Source: Candidatus Rifleibacteriota bacterium (GTDB lineage: Bacteria; Muiribacteriota; UBA6191; JACPRK01; JACQZM01). From it: a DNA stretch of 19,079 nucleotides. The stretch's first letter is position 1. Each line of letters begins with the position of its first letter. Of this stretch, positions 2,535-19,078 are shown in pieces. Location: the NCBI GenBank assembly GCA_016213885.1, contig JACQZM010000117.1, positions 1 to 19,079 on the forward strand, in the 5' to 3' direction. The position numbers were made by a program, and so were the translations under genes. The notes beneath the pieces are model-generated. The model worked only from the letters and a program-made list of their open reading frames with translations. It was not told the origin of the DNA and did no database searches.

Positions 2535-2550
2535 GAGGGCGATACCAGCC

Positions 2551-4434: not shown

Positions 4435-4439
4435 GGCCC

Positions 4440-4483
4440 CGGGTCCGACCTACCGGCTCGACCAGAGCGTGGCGATCGCCTGC
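4440..4483. repeat. 44-bp perfect direct repeat of 5199..5242 (last 11 codons + stop + 10 nt of 3' flank of the kinase gene)
   Basis: cgggtccgacctaccggctcgaccagagcgtggcgatcgcctgc occurs identically at 4440-4483 and 5199-5242. The first copy starts 6 nt after the flotillin stop. Confidence 0.85.
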
Positions 4484-4485
4484 GA

Positions 4486-4727
4486 ACCACCAGCCAGGCG
4501 AGGCAGAAGCCGTCCCATCGGCGAGGAGCCCGGGCCGGTTCCGGCGCCTCGGCGGCCGGGCCGGACACCCTGGCACACTCCGGGGAGCGCTCTCCGGCAC
4601 CGGGCTGACCGACGCGCGATCGGAGCGATCCGATCCGGCCGGTCCGGAGGTGAGTGCCCCCGGGGTACGCGGGATCTTCGGCGGGTTGCACGCGCACCGT
4701 GAGACGCTCGGGAGGGTGCCGGGCAGG
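4486..4727 (-). pseudogene. Displaced, degenerate fragment of the 3' region of the kinase gene (homologous to 6167..6429), joined directly to the 44-bp terminal repeat; lacks the ~920 bp encoding the membrane domain
   Basis: By eye, ~240 bp align with 6167-6429 at roughly 90% identity. The first ~95 nt are identical. Later differences include 9-nt and 11-nt indels that break the kinase frame. The translated fragment (ORF 4251..4697 '-': RVQPAEDPAYP…EAPEPARAPRRWDGFCLAWLVV) mirrors the kinase linker region RVHPAEDPAYP…WDGFCLAWLVV. Confidence 0.7.
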
Positions 4728-4735
4728 GGGGTGGG

Positions 4736-4930
4736 ATCGGAACTGGGATCAGATTTCGAGGGTGCCATCTTGGCGGTGTACCCCACAGCGTCCAGGATCG
4801 GAGTGTTGATGATCGTGATGGACGACCCGGTGTCCAGCAGGCAGGTCACGTCCCGGAAGCCGAAGGGACCGTGAACTCGCGCCTGGACCCAGACCTCCCG
4901 CTCCTTGGGGTCAAACCTGACGGTCCACAC
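4736..4930 (-). pseudogene. Retropepsin-like (clan AA) aspartic protease, only the N-terminal ~65 codons including the DTGSS active-site motif; 3' part replaced by the displaced kinase fragment (six-frame ORF 4202..4930 reads through into it and into antisense flotillin)
   Basis: GTG start at 4928-4930 overlaps the stop of the upstream small gene by 20 nt. Reads 'VWVQARVHGPFGFRDVTCLLDTGSSITIINTPILDAVGY', matching the strand / D-T-G-S/A / hydrophobic pattern of bacterial retropepsin-like domains (Asp_protease_2 type). The flap and C-terminal 'hhG.D.L' elements are missing, because homology to the kinase-fragment repeat begins at ~4727. Confidence 0.5.
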
Positions 4931-5156
4931 GGAGCGCCGCCCTCAGCTTCTCGCCTCGCTTCTTCCCGGTCCACACGATCGCTGCCTCGTTCAGGTGCTT
5001 GGCCATCTCGATGAGCGTGGCGTGATCCGGGCTGTGCGCATAGACGATCCCGGAGAGCGGAACGGGCTCCGTGTTCGGCCAGACGTGGTCCACCAGAGCG
5101 ATCCACTCGTCGGCGTACGTCTCCTTGATTTCGTCCCAACTCAGCTTGTCGGCCAT
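4911..5156 (-). CDS. Small DUF5678-like protein (81 aa) often found with retropepsin-like protease genes
   Basis: ATG at 5154-5156 with GAAGGAG 8 nt upstream on the minus strand. The sequence 'ETYADEWIALVDHVWPNTEPVPLSGIVYAHSPDHATLIEMAKHLNEAAIVWTGK' fits the DUF5678 pattern ('GEWVAI … GKVVAHG.D…L.E.AK … I'). The stop overlaps the protease GTG start. GC is lower than neighbouring DNA. Confidence 0.55.
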   Translation of the reverse strand: MADKLSWDEIKETYADEWIALVDHVWPNTEPVPLSGIVYAHSPDHATLIEMAKHLNEAAIVWTGKKRGEKLRAALRVDRQV

Positions 5157-5198: not shown

Positions 5199-5242
5199 CG
5201 GGTCCGACCTACCGGCTCGACCAGAGCGTGGCGATCGCCTGC
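5199..5242. repeat. Second copy of the 44-bp direct repeat (inside the 3' end of the kinase CDS)
   Basis: Identical to 4440-4483. Contains the kinase stop codon (cta at 5209-5211 on plus = TAG on minus). Confidence 0.85.
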
Positions 5243-8200
5243 AAGACAGCCACGCCCAGCGTGCTCAGCACCCCGATCCACCACCGCCGTCGCTTCATCT
5301 CGCTGGCCAGAAGGGCCAGCGAGCCCACGATGGCGATCGGCGTGACCGCGAAAAAGAAGAACACCCGGTCGCCGGAGGAGGAGACATTCTGCAGGGCCAG
5401 CGACACGGCAGACACCGCCAGCGAGCTGACGAGCAGCACCCACGGCTGGACCGAAGGGTGCCCGCAGAACGCCCGGAACGCGAGGAGCGTGCCCAGGTAG
5501 GTCGCGACCCAGAGCGAAATCGCGAGAGCGGCACCCGCCCTGCTCTCCACGACGGCGATGAACGAGACCCAGAGGAGTGCCAGGATGCCCAGACGGTAGC
5601 TCACGCGCGGGGGCAGCTCCGGGGCCGGGTACAGCAGCTGGGAGAGAAACAGGACCACCGCCGGGCCGAAGGAGGCGACCAGCTGCACGAGGGGGTCGAG
5701 CTTGCCCTCGATGATCGCGTGGACCCCGAGGGTCAGTCCCAGCCAGAGGCCAAGCAGCGCGCCGCGGAGCTTCCAGGGCGAGAGCACGACCTGACGGCCG
5801 GGATAGAACATCAGGGCGAAGACCAGCGCCGGGACCGAGAGACAGACCCCCACGAGGAACGCCTGCTGCCCCTGCGGGCGGGGGACCAGCAGCGGGATCG
5901 CGATCATCACGATGACGGCATGGCCACCGAGGACGGCGAGAACGGTCCGTCTGCCGATCGGTTCGCAGGGGAGCTGCAGGTGGAGCGACCCTGCCGTCGC
6001 CGAGGCGCCGGGAGCAAAGCCCGCGGGCCAGCGGCACCAGGGCAGGACCATCAGCGCGATGACGCCGGCGTAGAGTCCCATGAAGAATGACGTCTCGGGG
6101 TACCACCCTTGTCGGGGGCACAACCCGGCGAGTCCGCTCAGCGGGAACCAGAGGACCGCGACCAGGACCACCAGCCAGGCGAGGCAGAAGCCGTCCCATC
6201 GGCGAGGAGCCCGGGCCGGTTCCGGCGCCTCGGCGGCCGGGCCGGACACCCCGGCACGCTCCGGGGGAGCGCTCTCCGGCACCGGGCTGACCGGCGCGCG
6301 ATCGGAGCGATCCGGTCCGGCCGGTCCGGTCGGTCCGGAGGTGAGCGCCTCCGGCCGATCCAGGGGGTACGCGGGATCCTCGGCGGGGTGGACGCGCACC
6401 GTGAGACGCTCGGGAGAGTGCCGGGCAGGCCAGACAGGATCCGATGAGTCCCGGGCGCCTCTCTCGATCGGAGGGGAGATGCGATCCGCGAGGCCGACCC
6501 GGGCGAGCGCCTGACTGAACTCCGAAACGAGAGCTCCGACCGTCCGGGGTCGCTCGTCACGCTGCTTGGCCAGAGCTCGCAGCACCACCGCCGCGACCGG
6601 GGAGGGCACGCCCTCCGGTTCCGGCACGGGCGCGTTCTGGATCGCCCAGGCGAGGTCGCCGCCGGAGAATGGCGGGGAGAGGGTCAGCATCTGGTAGAGC
6701 GTGGCCCCCAGGGCGTAGACGTCCGACCGCACGTCGAGCTTCTGACACGCCATCTGTTCGGGACTCATGTACGCGAGGGTGCCGGTCGGCACCATCCCGG
6801 TCTGGCGCGTCCGGAAGCTCGCCAGCTCCGCGGCGACTCCGAAATCGGCCAGCTTCGCTCTCACGCACCCGTCCGGTCCGGTCTCGAGCAAGACGTTCGA
6901 TGGCTTGAGGTCCCGGTGGATGATCCCGTGGTGGTGGGCGTGGTCGAGCGCAGCGGCCACCCCCTCCAGGATCGGCAGAGCCTCCCGTGGTGTCATCGGA
7001 CCGGCGTCGCTCTCGTTCCGGGAGGCCAGCTCGTCCGCCAGCGTCCGACCTGCGACGAACTCCATCACCAGGAAGGGAGGGTCGCCAGGCTCCAGGTTCA
7101 TCAGCCGGACGATGTTCGGATGGGTCAGCTTGAGCGAGAGCCTGGCCTCCTTGATCAGGTTCGTCCGGGATTCGCTGTCGCACCAGAGCTCGAGGGGGAG
7201 CAGCTTCACGGCCACCTCGCTCCCCTCCATGGCGCCGTCCCTCGCGAGCCACACCTGGCCCATGCCGCCGTGACCCAGAAGACGAACGAGCCGGTACCGG
7301 TCCGCCAGCATCCGCCCTTCGACGGGGTCGAACCGGTCCGGCGGGGGCGGTTTCGGCCGCTTCGGGGAGCTCTTCTTGCCCGGCGCGACGGTCCGGTAGA
7401 TCCGGAGCAACGCCTTGCGGAACTCCGACGCCCCCTGGAATCGTCGCGCGGGGTCCTTCTCCAGCGCCCTCTCGATCACCTCGTCGAGCTCCCCGGGAAG
7501 ACCGGGCCTGACCGAGCTGGCCAGGGGAGGCTCGGTCATCATGTGCTGGTAGAGGTGCTCCGGGATCGTCGGGCCCGGGAACGGGAGCTGACCGGTGACG
7601 ACCTCGAACAGCACGACCCCGACGGCGTACAGGTCGCTCGCCGGTGTGCACCGCTGTCCGCGACACTGTTCGGGCGACATGTACGCCGGGGTCCCCATGA
7701 TCTTCCCCGCGACCGTTCCGGACGGAAGGTGCTGCGCCCTGGCGAGGCCGAAGTCGCCGATCTTGGGCTCACCCTCTCGCGAGAGGAAGATGTTGGCGGG
7801 CTTCAGGTCCCTGTGCACCACCCCCTTGTCGTGGGCCACCTTGAGTCCTCCCAGAACCCTGAGCACGATGCGCAGGGCCTGTCGCAAGGAGAGGCGCGTC
7901 GGGTCTCTCAGGCGCTCTTGCAGCGAAGAGCCCTCCACGTACTCGCACACCACGTAGGGCAGGCCGCCGTCGTGGCCGGCGCCGTGGACCGCCACGATGT
8001 TCGTGTGGTTCAGGGAGGCCAGGACCTTCGCCTCCTTGACGAGCCGCCGGATCTGTTCGGTCGAGAGCTCGTCCCCTCTGACCACCTTCACGGCGACCAG
8101 CCGGTCGAGCTCGATCTGACGCGCCAGGTAGACCTTTCCCATCCCGCCCTCGCCCAGCGTCCTGATGATCCGGTACTGGGTCATGAAGGCCTGGGAGAAC

Positions 8201-8364
8201 CGGGCGAGGATCGGATCCGGAGGAGTCGTGGTGGCGCAGGTCTCCGGACCGGCGCCGACGACCACCGCCCGTCCGCACGAAGGGCAGCTGGCGCGGCCGC
8301 TGGAGTCGACGACGAGCGCCACCCGGTCCGGGCAGTGAGGGCAACAGAGCACGCCGTCGGTCAC
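5209..8364 (-). CDS. Membrane-anchored tandem Ser/Thr protein kinase: N-terminal C4 zinc ribbon, two Hanks-type kinase domains, Pro-rich linker, C-terminal ~9-10 TM domain (PglW-like?)
   Basis: 1051-aa ORF with GAAGGAG RBS upstream of the GTG start. Zinc ribbon: CCPHCP-x17-CPSCG. Kinase domain 1: LGEGGMGKVY, VAVKVV, HRDLKPANIFL, DFGLAR, GTPAYMSPEQ. Kinase domain 2: LGHGGMGQVWLA, VAVKLL, HRDLKPSNVLL, DFGVAAE, GTLAYMSPEQ. C-terminal ~330 aa form successive hydrophobic helices (e.g. LAWLVVLVAVLWFPLSGLAGL, VIALMVLPWC, AVIVMIAIPLLV, LVGVCLSVPALVFALMFY, LGILALLWVSFIAVV, FFFFAVTPIAIVGSLALLA). Confidence 0.9.
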   Translation of the reverse strand: MTDGVLCCPHCPDRVALVVDSSGRASCPSCGRAVVVGAGPETCATTTPPDPILARFSQAFMTQYRIIRTLGEGGMGKVYLARQIELDRLVAVKVVRGDELSTEQIRRLVKEAKVLASLNHTNIVAVHGAGHDGGLPYVVCEYVEGSSLQERLRDPTRLSLRQALRIVLRVLGGLKVAHDKGVVHRDLKPANIFLSREGEPKIGDFGLARAQHLPSGTVAGKIMGTPAYMSPEQCRGQRCTPASDLYAVGVVLFEVVTGQLPFPGPTIPEHLYQHMMTEPPLASSVRPGLPGELDEVIERALEKDPARRFQGASEFRKALLRIYRTVAPGKKSSPKRPKPPPPDRFDPVEGRMLADRYRLVRLLGHGGMGQVWLARDGAMEGSEVAVKLLPLELWCDSESRTNLIKEARLSLKLTHPNIVRLMNLEPGDPPFLVMEFVAGRTLADELASRNESDAGPMTPREALPILEGVAAALDHAHHHGIIHRDLKPSNVLLETGPDGCVRAKLADFGVAAELASFRTRQTGMVPTGTLAYMSPEQMACQKLDVRSDVYALGATLYQMLTLSPPFSGGDLAWAIQNAPVPEPEGVPSPVAAVVLRALAKQRDERPRTVGALVSEFSQALARVGLADRISPPIERGARDSSDPVWPARHSPERLTVRVHPAEDPAYPLDRPEALTSGPTGPAGPDRSDRAPVSPVPESAPPERAGVSGPAAEAPEPARAPRRWDGFCLAWLVVLVAVLWFPLSGLAGLCPRQGWYPETSFFMGLYAGVIALMVLPWCRWPAGFAPGASATAGSLHLQLPCEPIGRRTVLAVLGGHAVIVMIAIPLLVPRPQGQQAFLVGVCLSVPALVFALMFYPGRQVVLSPWKLRGALLGLWLGLTLGVHAIIEGKLDPLVQLVASFGPAVVLFLSQLLYPAPELPPRVSYRLGILALLWVSFIAVVESRAGAALAISLWVATYLGTLLAFRAFCGHPSVQPWVLLVSSLAVSAVSLALQNVSSSGDRVFFFFAVTPIAIVGSLALLASEMKRRRWWIGVLSTLGVAVLQAIATLWSSR

Positions 8365-8610
8365 GAGAGCTCTCCTTCGAGCCGGGCGCCGCTGCTGGCG
8401 GGCTCGCTCTTCCAGGGCCTCGCGATGGGCGCCGAGCGCAGCGTCGTCGGGTCCATCCTAGACCATCGCTCTCGAAGTTCCCAGGCAGTTGTCAGACCGC
8501 ACGCACGGGAGCTGGGAGCTGCCTGCCGGACACCGGCGTCGTCGCGGAGCCCGACGCCACCCGGACGAGTCCGTGAGGCCGTCTCCAGTAGACGCTCGGC
8601 AGCCACGGCA

Positions 8611-10743
8611 CTACACCAGAAACGCCGCCAGCAGGTCCGCCTCGGGACCGGCGAGCTCCCGCACCTCCGAGAAGGTCGCGGCCACCTCGACGACCCCCGT
8701 GGCCAGCAGCCGCTCGACGACCTGCCGGCGCCGGATGTCGATGGGCACGAGCCGGGCGTGCGCACCGGGCTCCTGGAGACGCTCCAGCCGCTTCCAGCAG
8801 GTCGCGACAGCCCGTTCGAGCGTCCGCGGATCGAGCCTGAGCGCCGCGGGTGACGGCGCCGCGTCCAGGGTGATGCTGGCGTCGCCTGCGGCACGGATCC
8901 GCAGGCCACTCCCGGCAAGATGCGCCGCCAGCGCCCGCGTTCCGGCTCCCCCGAGAAACGGGAACACGGCGATCCTCCCCGGCCCCGCCGGGATCACCGG
9001 GACGACCCCGACGGGGATGCCCAGGTGCTCCCGGACCGCCTGGGCCAGCCCGAGCGAGATGGGCATCGGGGCGGTGAAGTAGCGCGGCGCCTGGGCGGGG
9101 CCCGGGCCGGACCGATCGAGATAGGCCCGGCCGTCGGCGGTCGTGGTGAGGTGCCCGGTTCTTCCGGCGAACGCCACCGGTCCGGCCGCCGGGATGCCGG
9201 ACCGCTGGACGTCCCCGAGATGCTCGTGGGTCCCCGCATCGAACACGGCCACGGTGTCGCGGACCTGGCCCATGTTGGTGTGGAGCTTCCGCGGATCGGT
9301 CTCGAACCAGCGCTCCAGGGTCGGCCCGATGCCGTATCGTCCGCCCCGCGCCACGGTGAGCAGCCCCTGCTCGGTCATGGCGACCAGCACGGCCTGAAGG
9401 TGCAGAGCCGGACCGGCCGGGTCGACGACCCCGTCGGGGTCGGCCAGCAGCGCCTCGATCTCCGGACGCCCCACGGTGCCGCTGGAGCGCTGCAGCAGGT
9501 AGCTCGCGATCTGCTGGACCAGCACCGACGCCGCGAAGATCCGGCCGGGGCGCTCGATCTCGCCCTTCCGCGCCAGCGAGAGGATGACCTCGAACATCAC
9601 CTCGTCGGCCCTGCCGCGGGCGACGCCGAGCACCCTCGTGACGTCCTTTCTCCGGCGACAGCCACGGCCGATCTGCTGGAGGAACGAGGTGACGCTGGGG
9701 GGCGCGCCGACCTGGACGACCCAGTCCACGTCGCCGATGTCGATGCCGAGCTCCAGCGTCGAGGTGGCGACGAACACGGCCTGGGCGGCCCGGTGGAACG
9801 CCTCTTCTGCCGCCAGCCGGGTGCTCCTGGAGAGGCTCCCGTGGTGGGCGTAGACGTGGTGTCCCCAGGGAGCTTGCCCTGCGAGCTCCGCCGCCACCTC
9901 CTCGCATCCGGCCCGGCTCCGGGTGAAGACGAGCAGCTTGGCCGCCCCGGAGCGGGGAATCCGCCGGAGCGCCTGCAGCACCGTGCCGCCCCCGGCGAGC
10001 GGTGCGCCGATCGTCTCGATGGTCCGGCTCCCCGCCACCCGGAGGACCCCGGCGCCCGGTGCGAACGCCGCGGCGAGCGAGGCCGGGTCCGCCGCCGTGG
10101 CCGATACCAGGACGGTCTGGAGCGTCGAGCGCGGGTCTCGATCGCCCCGGTCCACGGCCGCCCGGTGGATCCGGCGCACCCTCGACATGAGGATGCCCAG
10201 CTGGTCGCCCCGGGGCGTGCCGTCCACGAGATGGATCTCGTCGAGCACCACCGCACGCACCCCGACGAGCTCCCCGGGCCTTCTCACCAGGAGCGAATCG
10301 AAGCTCTCCGGAGTCGTGATGAGCCACGGCGAGAGCCGCCCCTGTCGGCTCACCGGGTGGTCCGCCGTCTTCCGGCCCAGGACGATGCCGAGTCGCTCCA
10401 GTGGCGGAGCCAGCCGGCGGTAGAGGTCGTTCACCAGCGCCCGGGTGGGGCAGACCCAGAGAAGGGCCGCTCCGGCGTCGGCTCGGGCGAGGTGAAGCTC
10501 GGCCAGAGGCGCCGCAACCGCCTCGGTCTTGCCGCCGGCGGTCGGCGCAGCGACGACGGCGCTCTCCCCGGCCAGGAGCCGGGGGATCGCCGTCCGCTGG
10601 ATCGGCGTCAGTCGCCCGAACCGGCCGAAGAACGCGGGGCCGCAACGCCGGAGGGAGGCGAGGATCGCCCGCTCCAGAGCCCGATCGCTCTCCGGCTTCG
10701 CGAGAAGACCCGGCGGGGTCGAGGGCTCACGATTCGCGGTCAC
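8611..10743 (-). CDS. DEAD/DEAH-box superfamily-2 helicase, Lhr-like (BrxHI-like)
   Basis: 710-aa ORF. Its GTG start overlaps the stop of the upstream gene by 17 nt (gtgaccgcgaatcgtga). Motif I AAPTAGGKTEA, motif II VVLDEIHLV (DEIH), motif III VSATAAD, helicase C-terminal motif VI QQIGRGCRRR. A ~300-aa C-terminal extension follows, as in Lhr-type helicases. Confidence 0.85.
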   Translation of the reverse strand: MTANREPSTPPGLLAKPESDRALERAILASLRRCGPAFFGRFGRLTPIQRTAIPRLLAGESAVVAAPTAGGKTEAVAAPLAELHLARADAGAALLWVCPTRALVNDLYRRLAPPLERLGIVLGRKTADHPVSRQGRLSPWLITTPESFDSLLVRRPGELVGVRAVVLDEIHLVDGTPRGDQLGILMSRVRRIHRAAVDRGDRDPRSTLQTVLVSATAADPASLAAAFAPGAGVLRVAGSRTIETIGAPLAGGGTVLQALRRIPRSGAAKLLVFTRSRAGCEEVAAELAGQAPWGHHVYAHHGSLSRSTRLAAEEAFHRAAQAVFVATSTLELGIDIGDVDWVVQVGAPPSVTSFLQQIGRGCRRRKDVTRVLGVARGRADEVMFEVILSLARKGEIERPGRIFAASVLVQQIASYLLQRSSGTVGRPEIEALLADPDGVVDPAGPALHLQAVLVAMTEQGLLTVARGGRYGIGPTLERWFETDPRKLHTNMGQVRDTVAVFDAGTHEHLGDVQRSGIPAAGPVAFAGRTGHLTTTADGRAYLDRSGPGPAQAPRYFTAPMPISLGLAQAVREHLGIPVGVVPVIPAGPGRIAVFPFLGGAGTRALAAHLAGSGLRIRAAGDASITLDAAPSPAALRLDPRTLERAVATCWKRLERLQEPGAHARLVPIDIRRRQVVERLLATGVVEVAATFSEVRELAGPEADLLAAFLV

Positions 10744-12424
10744 GGCGCGGTCCCTCCACGAACGAGGCGATCTCGTCGGCGACTCGAGCCCAGCTCCAGC
10801 CCGATCGGGCGCGGACCAGATCGAGCCCGTTGACGACGGTCTGGACGACCTCGCGGAGGTTCTTGAACGTGCCGCTCTCGAGCCCGCTCTCGAAAGCCAG
10901 CGCGAGCCGCCTGCGGTCCTGCGGACCGGGTGGTGGAACCGCGGGGAACGCCCACCGGTAGGTCGCGTCGACGCGCTCGATCAACGAGGTCAGCTCGGCC
11001 TCGCCGAGACGGCCCGGCAGGGGCGTGACAAGGCTCTTGTCGGGCAACCACGAGACCAGATCGTCCTGGCCGGGCGCGGGGGTGCAGGCGACGACCAGGC
11101 CCAGGTTCGCCGGCGGCCGCCAGCAGAACGGGATCTTCTTCCTGCCGCCCTGGTAGGAGCCGCCGAGGTATTCGACCGGCAGCGAAGGACCCAGCGCGCT
11201 GGCCACGAGACCTTTGAAGAAGTCGACGGCCCGGCCCTCCATCTCGACGGAGAGGAGTCGCAGGTGCTCCGCCTCGTCGAGGAGGACGACGAGACCGGCG
11301 TGGCCCAGCAGGCGCACCAGGTCGGCCAGGCCGCTGATCAGGTAGGTGAAGTGGCTCGAGAGAGTCGTGTACGAGCCGAGGGAGAGCAGCGCCTGTCGGG
11401 CCGTGCGGACCGCGACCCGAGCCCGGAGGTCGTCGAGGTCGACGTCCTCGCCGGAGATCCACTGGTAGAGGTAGTCCTTGCCAGCGGCATCGCCGGACAA
11501 TCCCTGCCAGTTGAGCAACGTCGGTCCGAGGAACTCGTGCCACGCTCCTCGCCTCCGGCGAGCGAACGAATCGACGACCACCGGGGAGAGCACGGCCCGG
11601 TCGAGCAGCCCCACGAGCCCTCGTCCTCGCGCGTCCTCGCCGGGGACCCTGAGTGACTTCACCAGGGAGCGGTAGACGTTTCGGGGATGGTTCGCCTGGC
11701 ACTCGAACGCGTCGAGGTCGGCCCGCGCCACGACGAAATCCTCGTGGAGCGCCATCCTCCAGATGACGTCCAGCGCGTGGCTCTTCCCGCTGCCGTACGG
11801 CGCCGAGATCACCCTGACCGATCCACCGCGACGCGCCCTGGCCAGGTCGGCGGCGAACAGCCGACGCTCCCTCTCGAGCCCCACCGAGAGCGCCTCCACG
11901 GCGTAGCGCGGGACGATGCCGAACCGCAGCGCCTCCACGACGTTGCGACCCACCCGGCCCCGCCACCGGGCCCGCTCCTCCGGATCCACGGGATCCTGCC
12001 GGGGCTGCTCCTCTAGGCGTGGCCGGGCCGGCTCGTCCCGGGGGCGCTCACGGAGCCCCGACCCGGCGGGCTGACCCGGCGGGAGCTCGGGGGAGCTCTC
12101 GATCGCAGCCGGTGGTGTCGCCGGCGCAGCCCCGGACGCCGCTCCGGACGACGCCGGGGCGGGTGGCCCGTCCGCGACGGCCGTGACCTCCGGGCGCCGG
12201 AGCCAGATCACGAGCCCGATCGGAGGGTCCAACCGCACGAAGAGCTCGTGGCCGCCGAATCGCTCCGCGACCACCGTGCCGTGGCACCGGAAGCGCCCGA
12301 CCAGGACCCGGAACCCGATCATCGACGTCACGAGCGATCGCCGTCCCTGGTCAGTACTCGCCGCCGGCCTCGGCCTCGGTCTCCGATCTCGAGAGCGCCA
12401 GAAGCGACGTCTCGATCGGCGCAT
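10727..12424 (-). CDS. DUF2791/BrxD-like P-loop ATPase, paralogue of the upstream gene; annotated ORF start probably too far upstream (low-complexity N-terminal ~150 aa)
   Basis: Walker A 'VISAPYGSGKSHAL', Walker B 'LVVLLDEAEHL'. N-terminal block 'VGRNVVEALRFGIVPRYAVEALSVGLERE…GGSVRVISAPYGSGK' parallels 'ATRIIHRLGESGQPPTRGVQYFNVGNTRLLD…GGSSFKLVVGQYGGGK' of the adjacent BrxD-like protein. Overlaps the upstream gene by 74 nt as drawn; an internal start (e.g. MIGFRV…) would reduce this. Confidence 0.7.
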   Translation of the reverse strand: MRRSRRRFWRSRDRRPRPRPAASTDQGRRSLVTSMIGFRVLVGRFRCHGTVVAERFGGHELFVRLDPPIGLVIWLRRPEVTAVADGPPAPASSGAASGAAPATPPAAIESSPELPPGQPAGSGLRERPRDEPARPRLEEQPRQDPVDPEERARWRGRVGRNVVEALRFGIVPRYAVEALSVGLERERRLFAADLARARRGGSVRVISAPYGSGKSHALDVIWRMALHEDFVVARADLDAFECQANHPRNVYRSLVKSLRVPGEDARGRGLVGLLDRAVLSPVVVDSFARRRRGAWHEFLGPTLLNWQGLSGDAAGKDYLYQWISGEDVDLDDLRARVAVRTARQALLSLGSYTTLSSHFTYLISGLADLVRLLGHAGLVVLLDEAEHLRLLSVEMEGRAVDFFKGLVASALGPSLPVEYLGGSYQGGRKKIPFCWRPPANLGLVVACTPAPGQDDLVSWLPDKSLVTPLPGRLGEAELTSLIERVDATYRWAFPAVPPPGPQDRRRLALAFESGLESGTFKNLREVVQTVVNGLDLVRARSGWSWARVADEIASFVEGPRRDRES

Positions 12425-13643
12425 CCCAGGAAGGAACCGGCGACTCGCCGTCGACGGATTGCTGCATCAGATGGGCCACCAGAGTCTTCACGAACACCCG
12501 CCGCTGGTTCACCGAGAGCGTCTGCTCGTAGCACCTGCGGGCCAGGGCGCCGATGTTCGCAAGCTGCAGCCCCCGGTCGAACGACCGCCCCTTGTACACC
12601 TCGAACACCGCCAGGATCTTCTCCCCCATGGCGACGAGCAGCTCCTCCCCCGGGAGATCGAGCTCGTCGAGGTCGATACGGGGGGAAAAGGGGTTCCGCT
12701 CCGAGAACACCGTGGGGGCTTCGAGCCGCTGGTGCAACGCGGCGTACCGCGGCACCACGCTCTCCAGGAAATCCGGGGTCACCGAGTAGACGAACAGCGC
12801 CCCGGGGAGCTCCTCGTCGCCGCAGTGGTTCACCACGGAGAGCAGGTTCTCGCAGGCGTACTTCTGGGAGCGCGCGCTCATCATGCTGACCATCCGTTGC
12901 CCCTCGTCGAAGAGCAAGATCAACCCCTGGTAGCCGAGCTCCCTCACGAGCTGGCAGAGGTTCCGGAGCATGCGAAAGGCGTTGTGCTGGTGGGGAGCCT
13001 CGATGATCCCGAACGACCGGAGCTCGCCCCGTTCCAGCTCGTCGCCCTGGAGCCAGGAGCCCAGCGAGCTTCGGGTCTGCTCGTCGCCGCTCGCGACGGC
13101 GCCGACGAACCGCTGGACGGCGTTGCGGAAGCTGGGGTTCTCGACCTTGATCCGCCCCAGCGACTGCACGAACGCATCGAGCATCGCCCCGGTCTCGTCG
13201 GCGTTCTCGGCCTGGGCCGACAGGCGGCTGGAGAGCCCGTAGTAGTGGCCCTTGAGGAACTCGTCGACCCCCCTCTCCGGCTCCGAGGCGGCATCGCCGG
13301 GCGGGGCCTGGATGTTGCGAGCCACGGCCTGGTAGACCCGCAGCGGATCGTCGTACGGACACTCCTTCTGGGAGAGCTGCACGAAGCTCGTGGCGAAACC
13401 GTGCTTCCAGGCGAGCTCCCGGAGACAGAACATCAGGTGGGTCTTGCCGCCGCCGTACTGACCGACCACCAGCTTGAACGACGAGCCTCCCTCTTTCAGG
13501 TATGACTCGAGGTACTCCCTGGTGAGCGTGTCCAGAAGCCGGGTGTTGCCGACGTTGAAGTACTGGACGCCTCGGGTCGGAGGCTGGCCGCTCTCCCCGA
13601 GTCGATGGATGATCCGGGTCGCGTCACGTTTCGAGGGGAGCAT
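12351..13643 (-). CDS. brxD: BREX-type ATP-binding protein BrxD-like (DUF2791 family P-loop NTPase)
   Basis: 430 aa. N-terminal 'ATRIIHRLGESGQPP…GVQYFNVG…GGSSFKLVVGQYGGGKTHLMFCL' (Walker A), 'GLILLFDEGQRMVS' (Walker B). Size and motif order are typical of DUF2791/BrxD. ATG at 13641-13643. Confidence 0.7.
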   Translation of the reverse strand: MLPSKRDATRIIHRLGESGQPPTRGVQYFNVGNTRLLDTLTREYLESYLKEGGSSFKLVVGQYGGGKTHLMFCLRELAWKHGFATSFVQLSQKECPYDDPLRVYQAVARNIQAPPGDAASEPERGVDEFLKGHYYGLSSRLSAQAENADETGAMLDAFVQSLGRIKVENPSFRNAVQRFVGAVASGDEQTRSSLGSWLQGDELERGELRSFGIIEAPHQHNAFRMLRNLCQLVRELGYQGLILLFDEGQRMVSMMSARSQKYACENLLSVVNHCGDEELPGALFVYSVTPDFLESVVPRYAALHQRLEAPTVFSERNPFSPRIDLDELDLPGEELLVAMGEKILAVFEVYKGRSFDRGLQLANIGALARRCYEQTLSVNQRRVFVKTLVAHLMQQSVDGESPVPSWDAPIETSLLALSRSETEAEAGGEY

Positions 13644-13661
13644 GAGGAGTCGTCGCGCCTC

Positions 13662-14564
13662 CTAGCGCAGGCCGATCGCCTGGAAGTAGCTGCCGCCGCC
13701 CTTCTCGTCCGGCACCCAGAGCGAGCGGCCGTAGGCCCGGTCGTGCACCGCCACCTCGAGCTCCAGCTTCCGGCCTCCCACCTCGAAGCGCCGGGAGGCC
13801 CTCAGGCGGGCCAGGTCGTGGGCGAAGCGGAAAAGCGGGTAGTCCTTGAACCGCTTGGCGCTGGGGTCGCGCCGGAAGCCCTCGGACTGCATCTCCCACG
13901 CCAGGTGGCCGAAGAAGGCGAGGATGTCCACCAGCTCTCCCGGCGCCCTGTTCGCCGCCGTGACGCCAAGAGCATAGGCCGCGCTCAGGTGACGCAGAAA
14001 GACGTCGGGATCGAACGGCGGGATCTCGAGGTCGCCCAGGAACCGGGCCGTCGCCTCGCCGACCGCCTCCGGGTCCAGGGCGAGGCCTCGCAGCACGGTC
14101 CGCCGGGCGAACTCGACCTGGGCCCGGCCCGCCGCCGCGTCGATGACGATGCGGATCGCCCCGCAGGCGAACCCGTTGTCCGTGGGTTTCAGTTCCGGCC
14201 CTTCCGGGAGCAGTCTCGCAAGCGTCGCGGCCAGGGCGGTTCCGAAACGGGCAGCCGCGCGGCCCTCCGCGGCACGGGCCGCCTCTTCCAGGCCGTCCAG
14301 CGCCGGCTCGACGTTCGGTGCGCCGGCGACCTTCGAGGCCAGGTCCCGCAGGTGCTTCACCGAATCGAGCACCTGTCGAGGCGCCGCCTCGAGTCGTGGC
14401 ACCTGCTTGGCGAGCGTGGCCACGGCCCGGTCGAGCTCCGCGGCCAGCTTGGCGGCCCGGGAGGTCTCGACCCGCAGCGTCTCGAGGCGCTCGATGGTGG
14501 ATCGGTGGGCGCCGGGCGGCGCCGGCTGGTCGGTCTCGTCAGGCATGTCGCCATTGTAATACAT
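13662..14564 (-). CDS. Hypothetical protein (300 aa), predicted coiled-coil N-terminal third, no recognisable catalytic motif
   Basis: Clean ORF 18 nt upstream of brxD-like and 51 nt downstream of the 624-aa gene. The AT-rich start 'ATGTATTACAATGGCGACATGCC' is unusual for this genome. Heptad-like region 'TIERLETLRVETSRAAKLAAELDRAVATLAKQVPRLEAA'. Confidence 0.65.
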   Translation of the reverse strand: MYYNGDMPDETDQPAPPGAHRSTIERLETLRVETSRAAKLAAELDRAVATLAKQVPRLEAAPRQVLDSVKHLRDLASKVAGAPNVEPALDGLEEAARAAEGRAAARFGTALAATLARLLPEGPELKPTDNGFACGAIRIVIDAAAGRAQVEFARRTVLRGLALDPEAVGEATARFLGDLEIPPFDPDVFLRHLSAAYALGVTAANRAPGELVDILAFFGHLAWEMQSEGFRRDPSAKRFKDYPLFRFAHDLARLRASRRFEVGGRKLELEVAVHDRAYGRSLWVPDEKGGGSYFQAIGLR

Positions 14565-14615
14565 CGCTTGCGAAGTTGACAGACCGTAGCACCGGACGGC
14601 CGCACGAGCCGACCG

Positions 14616-16490
14616 TCAGAGGCGTGTCTTCGAAGGCGGCGCGAGCGCCGCGGCGGTCAGGAGCCTGCCGCGCAGCTTCTCCGGGGCGATCGACGCCTGC
14701 GGATCGAGGTCGTCGAGGATGTCCAGGACACGGTCGGCTCCGTCGATGCACGTCCGCCGGTCGGTCGTCTTCGACAGGAGCCAGAGATCGGCCCCTCCGC
14801 TGGTCAAGCCGAGCTCCCGCCGCAGCACCGCCCGGACCCGCTCCATCAGCTCCGGCATCGGCCTCAGCGTCCGGGCCAGCGACCCGGCGGTGCCCACACG
14901 GTACGAGAGCACCGCCCGGACATGATAGGCGACGCCCTCGAGGCGCACGACGTAGCCGGTCCGGTACAGCTCCTCGTGCGCTCCGAGAACCTGGTGAGCG
15001 CCGCTCGTCGTCCCGGCCACGAGCCGGTCCCGGATCGTGTCGAGCAGGCCCTTCTCGTAGCCCGCCCCGAGCTGGTCGGGGGTCAGGAACGGCGAGGCGA
15101 GGAAGGTCAGGAGCCCCCGGCCGAGGATGCGACCGTCCCCCCGCGGGCCCGGACGGATCTCGAGGGGGCGCTCGCCGAAGCCCCGGGCCAGAACGTCCAG
15201 GATCCCGCGGGCGACCCGGTCCGGCAGGTGGACGCACCGATCGACGTCGAGGGTGCTGGCTTTCGAGACCGTACGAGCCACCACGAGCCAGTAGTCCGAC
15301 GCGATCCGCAAGGCATCGAACTGTTCCAGGAGATGAGGCGCGGCCGCGGCCGGCACGTGGGGCCTGCGGGATCGACCCGGCGAGCGCGGGGCGGACTCCG
15401 ACGCCTCGGCCGCGGGCGCGACGGCGGCCGGACCCGGGGCGGTTCCGGACGGTGGCGGCTCCGGCTTGCGCGTGCAGCGACCGCAGCCGGGTTTCTCGAG
15501 GTCCCGGTGCCCCACCAGGACCTGGGTCGGCTCGCCACAGGAGGGGCAGTCCGGGAGGTCCACGGCGCCGACGACGACGTCGTAGCGCACCGGAACCCGG
15601 TGGGTCTCGGTCCCCTTCCACAGCAGCATCGAGGTGACGAACCGCGGGACGTGCAGCACCTCCACCGCCGCGACCCGGGCCTCGACGCGGGGGCGGTACC
15701 GGAGCTCGGTCTCCTTGAGCCGCATGTCGCGCTCGGCCTGGACAGCGGCGAGCATCTGGGCGGTCTTGAGGACCGAGTCGGCGGAACGGCTCCTGGAAGC
15801 CTTCGCCGCTAGCTCCTCCTCGCGCTGGCGGAAGTAGGCGCTGACCCTGCGCTCCTCCTCGGCCCGCTGGAGCTCGAGCTCTGCCGCCAGCGTCCGGAGC
15901 CGTTCGGTGGTGACCCTGTCGAGCTGGGCCAGGGTCGAAGCGACCACGAGCTCCGGCCCGACCTCGACGTCCAGCGGCAGGACGAACTGTCGGCCGCTCT
16001 GGAGGTTGAGTCGGTCGACCTCCGCGCGGTAGCGGTCCGCGGGCCGGCCGGTGGTCGCATCGATCCAGACCGGGCAGGCCACCTGCTGCACCACGTCGCC
16101 GTGGATGGAGATCACGAACTGCACGTTGAGCAGCCGACCCTCCATCAGGCGGCCCGGGCCCAGCTCGGCGAACCGCAGGCGGTCGAAGGTCAGGCACTCC
16201 CTCAGCCGGTGCTCCACCAGCGACGGGTCGACCGATCGGGCCGGCGCGTGGAGATGCTGTACCCGACCGGAGGCGAGCGTCCGGATGAGCGCCTCCTCGA
16301 GCCGCGGGCTGCCGAACGTCACCAGCTCGCGGGACGGCTTCTCCGCCGCTGCCTCCGGATCGAACGTGAGCTCCACCGGCGCCCCGTCCTCCGGCGTGGC
16401 CAGGTAGACTCCAGGCTCCGTCTCGACGGCGCCGTGGCCGAGGATCTCCAGGTAGCCCAGCAGGAAATCCTGGATCAGCGTCCGGTCCAT
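14616..16490 (-). CDS. Hypothetical protein (624 aa) with internal C4 zinc ribbon (DCPSCGEP…x15…GCGRCTRK), Pro/Ala-rich linker and ~250-aa C-terminal domain
   Basis: ORF ends 3 nt after the SNF2 gene stop (16490 vs 16494), suggesting translational coupling. No Walker, nuclease (PD-(D/E)xK, HNH, PLD HxK) or methyltransferase motifs found by eye. Confidence 0.7.
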   Translation of the reverse strand: MDRTLIQDFLLGYLEILGHGAVETEPGVYLATPEDGAPVELTFDPEAAAEKPSRELVTFGSPRLEEALIRTLASGRVQHLHAPARSVDPSLVEHRLRECLTFDRLRFAELGPGRLMEGRLLNVQFVISIHGDVVQQVACPVWIDATTGRPADRYRAEVDRLNLQSGRQFVLPLDVEVGPELVVASTLAQLDRVTTERLRTLAAELELQRAEEERRVSAYFRQREEELAAKASRSRSADSVLKTAQMLAAVQAERDMRLKETELRYRPRVEARVAAVEVLHVPRFVTSMLLWKGTETHRVPVRYDVVVGAVDLPDCPSCGEPTQVLVGHRDLEKPGCGRCTRKPEPPPSGTAPGPAAVAPAAEASESAPRSPGRSRRPHVPAAAAPHLLEQFDALRIASDYWLVVARTVSKASTLDVDRCVHLPDRVARGILDVLARGFGERPLEIRPGPRGDGRILGRGLLTFLASPFLTPDQLGAGYEKGLLDTIRDRLVAGTTSGAHQVLGAHEELYRTGYVVRLEGVAYHVRAVLSYRVGTAGSLARTLRPMPELMERVRAVLRRELGLTSGGADLWLLSKTTDRRTCIDGADRVLDILDDLDPQASIAPEKLRGRLLTAAALAPPSKTRL

Positions 16491-16493
16491 GCG

Positions 16494-18581
16494 CTACCCG
16501 CCCTCCTGGGGTTGGGCCCCGTCCTCCGGCGCGTCGCCCTGGCCTTCCACGCCCAGCCGGTCGCCCAGGATCGATTCGTTGAGCTCCTGCTGGAAGCGGA
16601 ACGCCTTCTTGGCCTCGTGCAGCCGGTCGCCCAGCGCTTCCATCGAGGCCCGCGCCGCCACCTCGTCGGCGGCACCGGCCCAGGCGTCGAACACCACCTC
16701 TTCGAAGCCGGTCTCCTCCTCGAGGTCGCCCAGGATCATGTCCATCTCGCCGACGACCAGTGCGAACAGGTCCAGCTTGCGCTCCAGCACGTCGATCAGA
16801 TCGTGCTCCAGCGTGCCGGCCGTCACCAGGTTGGTGACGCGCACCTCCCGCGTCTGACCGATGCGGTGCAGCCGTCCCAGCCGCTGCTCGATCCGCATCG
16901 GGTTCCAGGGCAGATCGAAGTTGACGAGGTTCCTGCAGAACTGCAGGTTCCTCCCCTCGGACCCGGACTCGGTGCAGATCAGGAGCTGGACCTCCTGCTC
17001 GAACCGGGCGACCGATCGATCCTTCTCGAGCCGCGACAGGCCGCCGTGGAAGAGACAGGCGCCGAACCCGGTCCGTTCGACGAAGGCGGCGAGGTGGTCG
17101 AGCGTCGCCCGGAACTGGGTGAAGATCACGGCCTTCTCGCCGTCCAGCTCCTGCAGCACCTGGAGGAACCGCAGCGTCTTGGCGGGGACGTCGACCGTGG
17201 CCAGCAGCGTGCGCAGCGATTCCAGCTCCGGATCCGTCGAGGCGGCGAGCGTGGCCGCGAGGGCCGCCGGCGAGGAGCCGCCGGCGAGCTGCAGCATCCT
17301 GAGCCTCATCGTTTCGTGAGCGCCGGGCTGGCCGCGATGGCGCCGGCGCACCAGGGCGCCGAGCCTTCCGTAGACCTCGGCCTCCGTGGTCGACGGCTGC
17401 ACCGAGACGGTATGGGCGGTCCGGGGGGGCAGCGCCAGTCCGGTGTCGGAGCGCCGGTTGCGGATCATGACCCCTTCCAGGAGCTGCCGCAGCTCCCCGA
17501 CGTTCTTGGCTCCGTCGGCGGCGACGAACCGCCCCTTGAAGCTCTTGAACGTACCGAGCTGCCCGGGCCTCAGCAGGGTCACCAGGTTGAACAGCTCCTT
17601 CAGATCGTTCTGGATCGGCGTCGCCGTCAGAAGCAGCATGAACCGCTTACGCAGCTGATTGACGAACTTCCAGGCCTGGGTGGTGGCGTTGCGCAGATGG
17701 TGGGCCTCGTCGATGATCACCAGGTCGTACTCCCTGGCGAGCACGAGGCTCCGGTGCGGCTCGCGCTTGGCCGTGGCCAGCGAGGCGATCAGCGTGGGGA
17801 ACCGGTACCACGGGTCGGGAAGGGCGTCGCGGAAGGGCGGCTCGTCCTGCATCACCAGCGAGACGCCGAAGTGGCGTCGCAGCTCCTCGCCCCACTGGCC
17901 GACCAGGGTCGGTGGCGTCAGGATGAGGGTCTTCTTCACCAGGCCGCGCGCCTGGTACTCCAGGAGCGTCATCGCGGCCTCTATGGTCTTGCCGAGGCCG
18001 ACCTCGTCGGCCAGGATGACGTGCCCCCGCATCCTGCCCATGACCCGTCGGACCACCCGCCGCTGGTAGTCGAAGGGGGTGAGCTCCCTGAGCTGGTTCT
18101 CGCACATCAGCACGTCCAGCGCCTGGGCGAGGGAGAGTTCCATGGCGCGACCGTGGAGATCCGACAGCGGGTCGTCCCGATGAACGCCGCGCAACGCCTC
18201 GAAGAGCAGCTCCAGACCGGTTCGTTCGATGACGATCCGACCGGCGGTCTGCGGGACCTCCGGGACCGGCCGGGAGCTCGTCGCAAGCTCCAGCACCGGT
18301 GTGTCGCCCGTGGAGATGATCCGGAGGCGGGCCTCCCTGCCCTGGGGGCCGATCATCCCGGACAGGCCGGCCCCGATCACCAGGTCGGGCTCCTGATCGG
18401 CGGCCAGCAGGACCTCGCGCCCCCCCCCATCCCTCAGGATCAGGCGTCGCGGTCGGCCCAGCCCCTGGAGCAGCTCGCCGACGCTGCGCTCCGCCGGCAG
18501 AGCATCGAGCGGAAGCCACTCGGGATCGATCTCGATGGCGACCTCGTCCCCGGCCGCAAGTCCCGTCGGTGAGGAGTCCAT
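16494..18581 (-). CDS. SNF2-family (Swi2/Snf2, RapA/HepA-like) DNA-dependent ATPase/helicase
   Basis: 695 aa. Motif I 'ILADEVGLGKTIEA', motif II 'DLVIIDEAHHLRN' (DEAH), motif III 'LLLTATPIQNDLKELF', motifs V-VI 'TESGSEGRNLQFCRNLVNFDLPWNPMRIEQRLGRLHRIGQ'. ATG at 18579-18581. Confidence 0.9.
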   Translation of the reverse strand: MDSSPTGLAAGDEVAIEIDPEWLPLDALPAERSVGELLQGLGRPRRLILRDGGGREVLLAADQEPDLVIGAGLSGMIGPQGREARLRIISTGDTPVLELATSSRPVPEVPQTAGRIVIERTGLELLFEALRGVHRDDPLSDLHGRAMELSLAQALDVLMCENQLRELTPFDYQRRVVRRVMGRMRGHVILADEVGLGKTIEAAMTLLEYQARGLVKKTLILTPPTLVGQWGEELRRHFGVSLVMQDEPPFRDALPDPWYRFPTLIASLATAKREPHRSLVLAREYDLVIIDEAHHLRNATTQAWKFVNQLRKRFMLLLTATPIQNDLKELFNLVTLLRPGQLGTFKSFKGRFVAADGAKNVGELRQLLEGVMIRNRRSDTGLALPPRTAHTVSVQPSTTEAEVYGRLGALVRRRHRGQPGAHETMRLRMLQLAGGSSPAALAATLAASTDPELESLRTLLATVDVPAKTLRFLQVLQELDGEKAVIFTQFRATLDHLAAFVERTGFGACLFHGGLSRLEKDRSVARFEQEVQLLICTESGSEGRNLQFCRNLVNFDLPWNPMRIEQRLGRLHRIGQTREVRVTNLVTAGTLEHDLIDVLERKLDLFALVVGEMDMILGDLEEETGFEEVVFDAWAGAADEVAARASMEALGDRLHEAKKAFRFQQELNESILGDRLGVEGQGDAPEDGAQPQEGG

Positions 18582-18682: not shown

Positions 18683-19078
18683 TCAGCTCTCCAGCGACCC
18701 TTCCTCCTCGTCCTGGATCAGCAGCACGACCTGGCCGTGACGGACGGAGCGGTGCTTCTTCCGCTGGTTGAGCGCCGCTGCGACTCGCTCCTCCGTCACC
18801 ACGCAGTTCTTCAGATAGGGTCGCGACGGGAGCTTGAACATCAGGTCGAGCATCACCTCTTCCATGATCCTTCTCAGGCCCCGGGCGCCGCTTCCCTCCT
18901 GGATCGCCGCCTCGGCGATGGAGGTCAGCGCCTCCTCGGAGTAGGTCAGGTTGACCCCGTCCATGGCCATCAGCTCCTGGTATTGCTTGACCAGGCTGCT
19001 GGTCGGCTCGACCAGGATCCTCACCAGGTCGTCCCGGGACAGCCGGGTCAGCGGAGCGACCACGGGCAGGCGCCCCAC
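18683..19078 (-). CDS. clpX: ATP-dependent Clp protease ATP-binding subunit ClpX, C-terminal 131 codons (5' part beyond window end)
   Basis: 'LVEPTSSLVKQYQELMAMDGVNLTYSEEALTSIAEAAIQEGSGARGLRRIMEEVMLDLMFKLPS' matches the conserved ClpX C-terminal region (…KNALVKQYQKLF…GVEL.F…AL..IA..A…KTGARGLRSI.E..LLD.M…LPS). The ORF runs to the window edge. Confidence 0.8.
   Translation of the reverse strand: MGRLPVVAPLTRLSRDDLVRILVEPTSSLVKQYQELMAMDGVNLTYSEEALTSIAEAAIQEGSGARGLRRIMEEVMLDLMFKLPSRPYLKNCVVTEERVAAALNQRKKHRSVRHGQVVLLIQDEEEGSLES

Follow-up and report, generated by a model that had tools for sequence, protein, structure and literature searches.

Does a locus that encodes a BrxD-like ATPase, a BrxHI-like helicase and a protein kinase represent one half of a BREX type 2 (Pgl) system, or does it belong to something else? 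The question is raised by a 19,079-bp contig of a Candidatus Riflebacteria metagenome-assembled genome (MAG), which we analyzed over its entire length (hereafter the window; absences reported for the window hold for this contig). A first-pass annotation had described its main gene block as the accessory half, or a derivative, of BREX type 2, in which a PglW-like kinase, BrxD and BrxHI form a trio that works with other effectors. Our analysis points to a different answer. We consider it moderately probable that the block is a six-gene operon built of two separable modules and adjoined by an unrelated kinase gene, and that it represents an undescribed relative of Shango-type systems with an inferred role in defence. 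Judged by sequence comparison, the first module (four genes, 8611-14564) stands as a sister lineage next to two known dyads, BrxD-BrxHI of BREX type 2 and SngB-SngC of Shango, and is a remnant of neither; the second (14616-18581) consists of a RapA-like SNF2 protein and a zinc-ribbon/coiled-coil partner.

The window has a G+C content of 70%, and third-position G+C (GC3) was used to choose one real gene per stretch of DNA. Seven GC3-supported genes on the minus strand form a single block, which extends from 18581, the start of the SNF2 gene, down to 5209, the stop of the kinase gene, exactly as annotated before (Table 1). The six genes from SNF2 to helicase are joined by gaps of 3, 51, 18 and 28 nt and by one 17-nt overlap. 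The kinase gene, as previously noted, lies on the same strand at a distance of exactly 246 bp from the helicase gene; folding of this gap as RNA (z = 0.96) and a scan for promoters and terminators were both uninformative.

Table 1. Features of the 19,079-bp window in order of position (aa, amino acids; ORF, open reading frame)
Feature	Position	Strand	Assignment or remark
Amidase_3 protein	8-1399	+	left flank
YqiJ/NfeD-like membrane protein	1713-2534	+	left flank
SPFH/flotillin protein	2551-4434	+	left flank
81-aa ORF	4911-5156	-	left of the block
Tandem Hanks Ser/Thr kinase, 1051 aa	5209-8364	-	Pfam Pkinase, two domains; neighbour, apparently outside the system
Module gene 4, Lhr/BrxHI-like superfamily 2 helicase, 710 aa	8611-10743	-	Pfam DEAD and Helicase_C; ends the conserved operon
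Module gene 3, ATPase B, 531 aa from the likely start M35	10727-12322 (ORF to 12424)	-	Pfam PF10923
UvrD/PcrA-type Tudor-like module of ATPase B, about 47 residues	12182-12322	-	ortholog profile against PDB
Module gene 2, ATPase A, 430 aa	12351-13643	-	Pfam PF10923, E 4e-50 over full length
Module gene 1, protein of the unk300 family, 300 aa	13662-14564	-	
SNF2 partner of uncharacterized family (unk624), 624 aa	14616-16490	-	
CPxC...GCxxC zinc-ribbon motif of unk624, residues ~315-339	15474-15548	-	
SNF2-family helicase, 695 aa	16494-18581	-	Pfam SNF2-rel_dom and Helicase_C; first gene of the operon
ClpX C-terminus	18683-19078	-	right flank

The center of the four-gene module is a pair of ATPases. 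The first-pass annotation had listed one BrxD-like gene; there are in fact two genes of the BrxC_BrxD family. Both score well above the PF10923 gathering cut-off of 22.2 bits (ATPase A 171, ATPase B 92 bits) and retain Walker motifs (Walker A GQYGGGKT and Walker B LILLFDE in ATPase A, GSGKS and LVVLLDE in ATPase B), and on these features they are classified as ORC/Cdc6-like AAA+ proteins of the BrxC_BrxD superfamily with intact Walker A and B motifs. In length they correspond to BrxD rather than to BrxC, which comprises about 1200 aa. Yet neither approaches the NCBIfam BREX_BrxD cut-off of 350 bits (137 bits for ATPase A, 73 bits for ATPase B), and ATPase A shares only 26-28% identity with true BrxD and equally little with SngB. 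Identity between ATPases A and B is about 20%; their duplication is common to all module loci, which suggests that the two form a hetero-oligomer. The start of ATPase B at M35 was derived from an alignment of orthologs and leaves a 28-nt gap to ATPase A, as in a related locus (L005). From this start the protein is composed of an N-terminal Tudor-like module, a Pro/Ala-rich linker and the BrxC/BrxD-family AAA+ domain. The helicase that follows is, judged on its DEAD and Helicase_C core, an Lhr-like/Ski2-like superfamily 2 (SF2) protein; its closest solved relatives are Lhr of M. smegmatis (5v9x, 7lhl) and then Hel308, and in PADLOC it scores 251 bits with BrxHI and 186 bits with SngC. The BrxHI-like helicase and the SNF2 protein reported by the first-pass annotation are both present.

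The resemblance to BREX type 2 consists in a PF10923 ATPase with intact Walker motifs directly preceding an Lhr-like SF2 helicase, as in BrxD-BrxHI, and the corresponding models are the best PADLOC models for the ATPases and the helicase of the window. BrxD has been treated as specific for BREX type 2 in a recent survey (PMC12839542). The module differs, however, in having two paralogous ATPases instead of one, an additional first gene (unk300) and a Tudor module on ATPase B, and in being devoid of PglX, PglY/BrxC, PglZ and a true PglW. That PglX, PglZ and PglY/BrxC are missing had been stated before and was confirmed for the contig with domain libraries, tblastn and a motif scan. No real gene of the window contains a methyltransferase, PglZ or BrxC-size ATPase domain. 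As tblastn queries we used proteins from bona fide BREX type 2 loci of Streptomyces (L019), Polaromonas (L021) and Aulosira (L023), with the window and 17 related loci as targets: two PglX proteins had no match in any of them, three PglZ proteins had a best window match of E 0.45 over 23 aa (nor was there a Pfam or PADLOC match to PglZ), and three PglY proteins yielded only short P-loop matches with E values of at least 0.008. For the window, this check, which the first-pass annotation had proposed, recovered nothing (best E 0.43). The reported absence of an NPPY/NPPF-type methyltransferase motif holds in substance, as the lone [ND]PP[YFW] sequence in six frames is a DPPF within the second kinase domain. 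What stands of the earlier description is therefore the combination of a BrxD-type ATPase and a BrxHI-type helicase outside any BREX core, together with SNF2 and uncharacterized proteins.

Phylogenetic analysis (neighbor-joining (NJ) trees of few sequences with 100 bootstraps), also suggested by the first-pass annotation, placed the BrxD-like and BrxHI-like proteins outside the BREX type 2 clades. The helicases of the module group together with 100% support, to the exclusion of BrxHI of BREX type 2, SngC of Shango and the helicase of a single-ATPase variant from Deinococcus. In the ATPase tree, a split with 81% support divides ATPases A and B of the module from BREX type 2 BrxD, SngB and the ATPase of the Deinococcus variant. 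Among the module ATPases, ATPase B constitutes a clade with 100% support, and ATPase A forms a clade of its own. Both kinds of locus are present on plasmid3 of Aulosira laxa NIES-50 (AP018310.1, 5107-16960; L023), on which a complete BREX type 2 tail (PglZ, BrxD, helicase) precedes, by at most 173 bp, a module with genes for proteins of 279, 420 and 398 aa and a helicase. Here the BREX type 2 BrxD groups with BrxD of Streptomyces and Polaromonas (82%), and the module copies of ATPases A and B group with those of Desulfomonile (100%). Scores under the cut-off, separate NJ clades and this co-residence all speak against orthology with BrxD and BrxHI of BREX type 2.

The Deinococcus variant is itself un-named. 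It is found in two copies on a plasmid of Deinococcus psychrotolerans (NZ_CP034187.1; L018) and comprises genes for a LRV/HEAT-repeat protein (851 aa), an uncharacterized 451-aa protein, a single BrxD-family ATPase and a helicase, in one copy with a small HNH gene behind them. The ATPase of this variant groups with BREX type 2 BrxD (100%), and no BREX core is annotated in the 19-kb stretch examined. A relationship of its 451-aa protein to unk300 was considered and rejected.

Among described systems, Shango, whose antiphage activity has been demonstrated experimentally (10.1101/2022.11.11.516204; 10.1101/2022.05.11.491447), is similar in organization, being a stand-alone operon without a methylase that encodes an accessory protein, a DUF2791-type ATPase and an Lhr-like helicase. 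The Shango models recognize the window proteins (SngB with 107 bits and SngC with the score given above). There are clear differences though. Shango has one ATPase, whereas the module has two in all loci, and in the window the SNF2 pair is added; in the trees, SngB and SngC side with BREX type 2 and the variant from Deinococcus rather than with the proteins of the module; and SngA is a TerB protein, to which the first gene of the module is unrelated. We had considered unk300 as a TerB/SngA-like protein, but neither unk300 nor five further family members matched TerB, TerB_N or TerB_C, and hhalign of the family profile against a bona fide SngA returned a probability of 0.1%. The SNF2 partner unk624 also lacks matches to these three domains. 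In the reference Shango operon of a Sulfitobacter faviae plasmid (L022, 6015-8445), a large gene of a PD-(D/E)XK nuclease family lies directly downstream at a gap of 2 nt; this nuclease may be an accessory Shango effector in plasmids of Roseobacteraceae.

The first gene of the module thus represents a protein family of its own. An exhaustive profile search for unk300 detected 598 clusters among 1.84 billion representatives, nearly all of them 270-300 aa in length; eight of the homologs are close. Family members tested had no match in Pfam, PADLOC, NCBIfam or PHROG, and unk300 of the window had none in the plasmid collection. A confident structure model with a predicted local distance difference test (pLDDT) score of 87 consists of an N-terminal three-helix bundle and an alpha/beta domain, for which a fold comparison found no structural neighbor, and no catalytic-looking invariant residues are apparent in the family alignment. 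The homology of this gene across distant loci is indicated by hhalign: a profile of 45 unk300 sequences gave probabilities of 98-99% with the first genes of L016, L017 and L023, and a profile of eight sequences gave 98% with the first gene of L015.

The six-gene order of the window (SNF2, a protein of ~640 aa, a protein of ~300 aa, two ATPases and the helicase) recurs in L024, a 28-kb contig that joins L004 and L005, and in L006, and is partially seen in L003 and L014. Proteins of these relatives are 34-65% identical to those of the window, and the same tiny gaps are retained (3 nt between SNF2 and its partner, as in L024, and 28 nt between the ATPases). Each of the two modules is also found alone. 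SNF2 and its partner occur in another Riflebacteria MAG (L001) with unrelated genes directly downstream, and the four-gene module is present by itself in L007-L013, behind an unrelated TPR peptidase on the opposite strand. The cassette is thus a composite of two separable modules, and the SNF2 pair is a rare, separable add-on, attached to the module only in a Riflebacteria-related clade. A small gene with a Prok-RING_1 domain (PF14446), absent in the window, recurs in the vicinity of both modules: it overlaps the start of SNF2 in L001 (309-800) and is located just beyond the module-adjoining TPR peptidase in L008 (371-784) and L009 (10-399).

Acidobacteriota, Chloroflexota and Deinococcota contain many homologs of ATPase A (40-48% identity). 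In the contexts sampled, a small gene (250-330 aa) is followed by ATPase A, ATPase B and usually the helicase, and BREX genes are absent within 10 kb. Examples of the module are known from a Pyrinomonadaceae locus (L015), from a Caldilineaceae locus (L016) and from a 4.3-Mb chromosome (L026), where HicB, an IS200 transposase, PIN and Fic are its neighbors; in L024 these are AAA_14/DUF4143 and a second SNF2 gene. In a tblastn search of plasmids the module was detected not only in Aulosira but also in Desulfomonile tiedjei DSM 6799, whose plasmid pDESTI.01 (L017; 26.9 kb, complete sequence) carries it beside AbiEi/AbiEii and a PD-(D/E)XK nuclease. The four-gene module is thus found widely, in several phyla, and apart from BREX. 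Its occurrence is rare and patchy: a scan of 185,579 species genomes with alignment A3 (alignment A1 was too divergent) detected the close clade at a single locus, and 2 of 72,556 plasmids carry the module.

The SNF2 protein at the head of the operon shares its core with RapA, with BrxHII of BREX type 3 and with DrmD of DISARM. RapA is its closest solved relative (E 2e-46), and DrmD- and BrxHII-type models match it in NCBIfam and PADLOC, but it stays under every equivalog cut-off (the best NCBIfam scores are 235 bits for DrmD, with a cut-off of 610, and 218 bits for RapA, with a cut-off of 576). It is short, without the C-terminal domains of RapA and BrxHII, and its N-terminal ~165 aa match nothing. 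The partners expected in DISARM or BREX type 3 are absent in the window, in which neither a DUF1998 nor a PLD or methylase domain was detected, so this SNF2 protein is not a DISARM component; its constant partner is instead the novel zinc-ribbon protein unk624. This protein comprises an N-terminal alpha/beta region, a long coiled coil (~179-264), a zinc ribbon, a Pro/Ala-rich linker and a helical C-terminal domain. The four cysteines of the ribbon (C315, C318, C336 and C339) are invariant in an alignment of four sequences. Only three homologs were found among 5.8e9 proteins, each encoded immediately downstream of an SNF2 gene. There was no match to unk624 in Pfam, PADLOC, NCBIfam or PHROGs and no PDB relative in a profile search; its AlphaFold2 model had a pLDDT of 46 and was not used.

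The kinase does not seem to belong to either module. As described earlier, it contains two Pkinase domains, both apparently intact, which are preceded by an N-terminal zinc ribbon and followed by about ten C-terminal transmembrane (TM) helices (hydrophobic segments at 722-1049). The first-pass annotation had called it PglW-like. PglW proteins are composed of a NERD nuclease, a pseudokinase plus a kinase, and C-terminal sensor domains, and comprise 1400-1600 aa (PMC12839542). The NCBIfam model BREX_PglW reaches 191 bits here, far from its cut-off of 990, and aligns only over the kinase part of the profile (positions 496-709); generic PknB-type and PD-T4-6 models outscore it two- to threefold. 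The similarity to PglW is thus of the generic Hanks type, the outcome that the first-pass annotation had itself named as refuting its view. Assignments to PglW, MADS6 and PD-T4-6 were all rejected as generic kinase-domain matches. The lone NCBIfam model above its cut-off, PknB_PASTA (532 against 450 bits), was rejected too, as it sums over two kinase domains in a protein that has no PASTA domain; this case illustrates that whole-protein cut-offs can misname tandem-domain proteins. Nor is the kinase conserved with the helicase, as the proposed trio would imply. In the related loci with a readable downstream flank (L024/L005, L014, L015, L017, L026) no Ser/Thr kinase follows the helicase; the genes in this position encode an opposite-strand histidine-kinase/response-regulator hybrid (L005/L024), CbiQ (L014), small uncharacterized proteins (L015), a DUF3124 protein (L017) and a creatininase (L026). 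By sequence and context it appears to be an ordinary kinase, unrelated to the neighboring operon.

What might the two modules do? We infer a role in defence from the homology to components of experimentally validated systems, from carriage on plasmids, from toxin-antitoxin, restriction-modification (RM) or BREX neighbors in about half of the loci, and from the very patchy distribution. The ATPase pair probably serves to recruit or activate the helicase, in analogy to ORC/Cdc6 loaders and to BrxD, for which a role as loader or activator of BrxHI has been suggested (PMC12839542). The two ATPases would form a hetero-oligomer that brings the Lhr-like 3'-5' helicase to foreign or aberrant nucleic acid, and the 300-aa protein, which takes the position of the TerB protein SngA in Shango, might act as an adaptor or a sensor. 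The proteins are presumed to assemble into a complex, for which the SNF2 pair would supply a second DNA translocase. Most likely, phages or plasmids would be impeded in their replication or transcription, with no DNA methylation involved.

A further element of this scheme is suggested by the N-terminus of ATPase B. A profile of about 45 residues built from eight orthologs had nine matches in the PDB, of which seven were C-terminal Tudor domains of UvrD/PcrA (best E 9e-6). The Pfam model PcrA_UvrD_tudor was the top match for four orthologs, although below threshold (E 0.001-0.013), and many ATPase B orthologs carry the signature G..V.H..[FY]G.G.V. In UvrD/PcrA this domain forms the C-terminus of a superfamily 1 helicase and binds the beta subunit of RNA polymerase and the 'helicase interaction motif' of other partners (PMC5397179, PMC8318588); here, it occupies the N-terminal end of an AAA+ ATPase. 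The Tudor module might hence anchor the complex on RNA polymerase or on a different protein with such a motif. In its most far-reaching form, this idea would have an RNA polymerase-docked, hetero-oligomeric ATPase pair load the Lhr-type RNA:DNA helicase, and with it SNF2, onto transcription complexes or R-loops of an invader and abort phage expression or replication, an undescribed type of immunity that needs neither a dedicated nuclease nor DNA modification; we regard this extension as speculative and rather doubtful.

Several observations weigh against the defence reading or parts of it. No nuclease, toxin or modification enzyme was recognized in the window. About half of the sampled loci are located among housekeeping genes, such as clpX in the window, gap-pgk-tpi in L015 and CTP synthase in L014. 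In L025 (8973-13923) a gene for a 285-aa protein and both ATPase genes are followed by a beta-propeller/lactonase-like gene and not by a called helicase; this copy, which has a HEPN/MNT pair and HsdM, the methylase of a type I RM system, in its vicinity, is either decayed or a helicase-less variant. The Tudor module is absent from the plasmid modules of Desulfomonile and Aulosira, and the copy in the window has no Pfam match and has lost the histidine equivalent to H681 of PcrA, which is needed for RNA polymerase binding (PMC5397179). These two findings on the Tudor module are the reason why tethering is treated here as a hypothesis. Finally, the deep branching among the module ATPases has weak support (6-59%, in small NJ trees); regardless of this branching, the sequence comparisons indicate that the module is not an ortholog set of BREX type 2.

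The lack of a recognizable effector nuclease or toxin and the loci among housekeeping genes leave genome maintenance as the main rival explanation. The AAA+ pair, tethered to RNA polymerase, would then load an Lhr-type RNA:DNA helicase in transcription-coupled or R-loop repair, and the RapA-like SNF2 protein would recycle RNA polymerase. This would fit with Lhr and RapA as the closest solved relatives, with a Tudor domain of the type by which UvrD and PcrA bind RNA polymerase, with the suppression of R-loops by PcrA (PMC8318588), with the absence of a methyltransferase in addition to nucleases and toxins, with the position of several chromosomal loci amid housekeeping genes and with the lack of any match to a module ATPase in the phage collection. 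A maintenance function is, however, difficult to reconcile with the extreme patchiness in genomes and in the clusters of the unk300 family, with plasmid-borne copies beside AbiE and BREX type 2, and with neighbors that differ in every lineage, and the nearest characterized relatives, BrxD/BrxHI and SngB/SngC, are defence components. We therefore think it unlikely, if worth keeping in mind.

Somewhat less credible still is that the SNF2 pair and the four-gene module are independent systems that merely lie side by side without functional coupling. The solitary SNF2 pair in L001 and solitary modules in L007-L013, L015-L017, L023 and L026 are in line with this explanation. On the other hand, gene order and nearly identical short spacers are kept in at least five lineages whose proteins have diverged to the identities given above, which argues for selection on linkage and co-transcription. 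A degenerate or split BREX type 2 system, with the tandem kinase as PglW and pglX, pglY and pglZ elsewhere in the genome, is highly improbable and largely refuted, since the family-level PADLOC matches, a kinase gene close by on the same strand and a window that is the whole contig of a fragmented MAG are outweighed by scores far under the BrxD and PglW equivalog cut-offs, by module clades separate from those of BREX type 2, by the presence in Aulosira of both a complete BREX type 2 system with its own BrxD and BrxHI and the module, by a complete module on a 26.9-kb plasmid without BREX genes, by the absence of BREX genes within +-10 kb in L015, L016, L025 and L026, and by a kinase that is not conserved with the module and has neither NERD nor the C-terminal domains of PglW.

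With respect to the surroundings of the operon, the housekeeping flanks reported before, clpX on the right and flotillin and amidase genes on the left, were found as described. The NfeD/YqiJ-like and SPFH/flotillin genes (1713-4434) resemble an ordinary housekeeping operon, and the flotillin (2551-4434) ends in a long Ala/Glu/Gln-rich coiled coil. A search of the window for tRNA genes and integration sites found none. At the left edge of the block, positions 4440-4483 are a 100% copy of the last ~12 codons and the stop of the kinase gene (5199-5242), and 4486-4727 repeat the linker and the first TM segment of the kinase (6167-6429) with 94-98% identity in blocks; this partial duplicate looks like the scar of a rearrangement or is possibly a misassembly. 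Between the two 44-bp repeats lies the 81-aa ORF, which matches nothing in any library. The N-terminus of another minus-strand ORF (4202-4930), which is cut off by the kinase fragment, is also located between the repeats and reads '...VTCLLDTGSSITIINTP...', similar to the DTG motif of retropepsin-type aspartic proteases. The minus strand of 4728-5156 may thus represent a small inserted element of two genes.

We found no description of this gene arrangement in the open-access literature, a scope that could miss one, or in PADLOC, NCBIfam, Pfam or PHROG, and a distinct, un-named four-gene ATPase-helicase lineage is the best-supported reading of our data. Within BREX type 2, BrxD and BrxHI are the components about which least is understood, and the mechanism of Shango is similarly obscure. 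The locus places the ATPase-helicase dyad of these systems, as one branch, within a broader range of self-contained modules; one member of this range is the conserved four-gene form with a heteromeric ATPase pair, a new family of ~300-aa partner proteins and often a Tudor domain of the RNA polymerase type. Two of the loci invite further work: the cultured strain Desulfomonile tiedjei DSM 6799 carries a complete plasmid-borne module and is thus tractable, and the Aulosira plasmid, with two paralogous ATPase-helicase sets side by side, offers a natural test of whether such sets are independent or cooperate. Study of the module could in this way reveal the role of the dyad in BREX type 2 and Shango, and a loader docked to RNA polymerase, if true, would also explain the function of the BrxD-BrxHI and SngB-SngC dyads.

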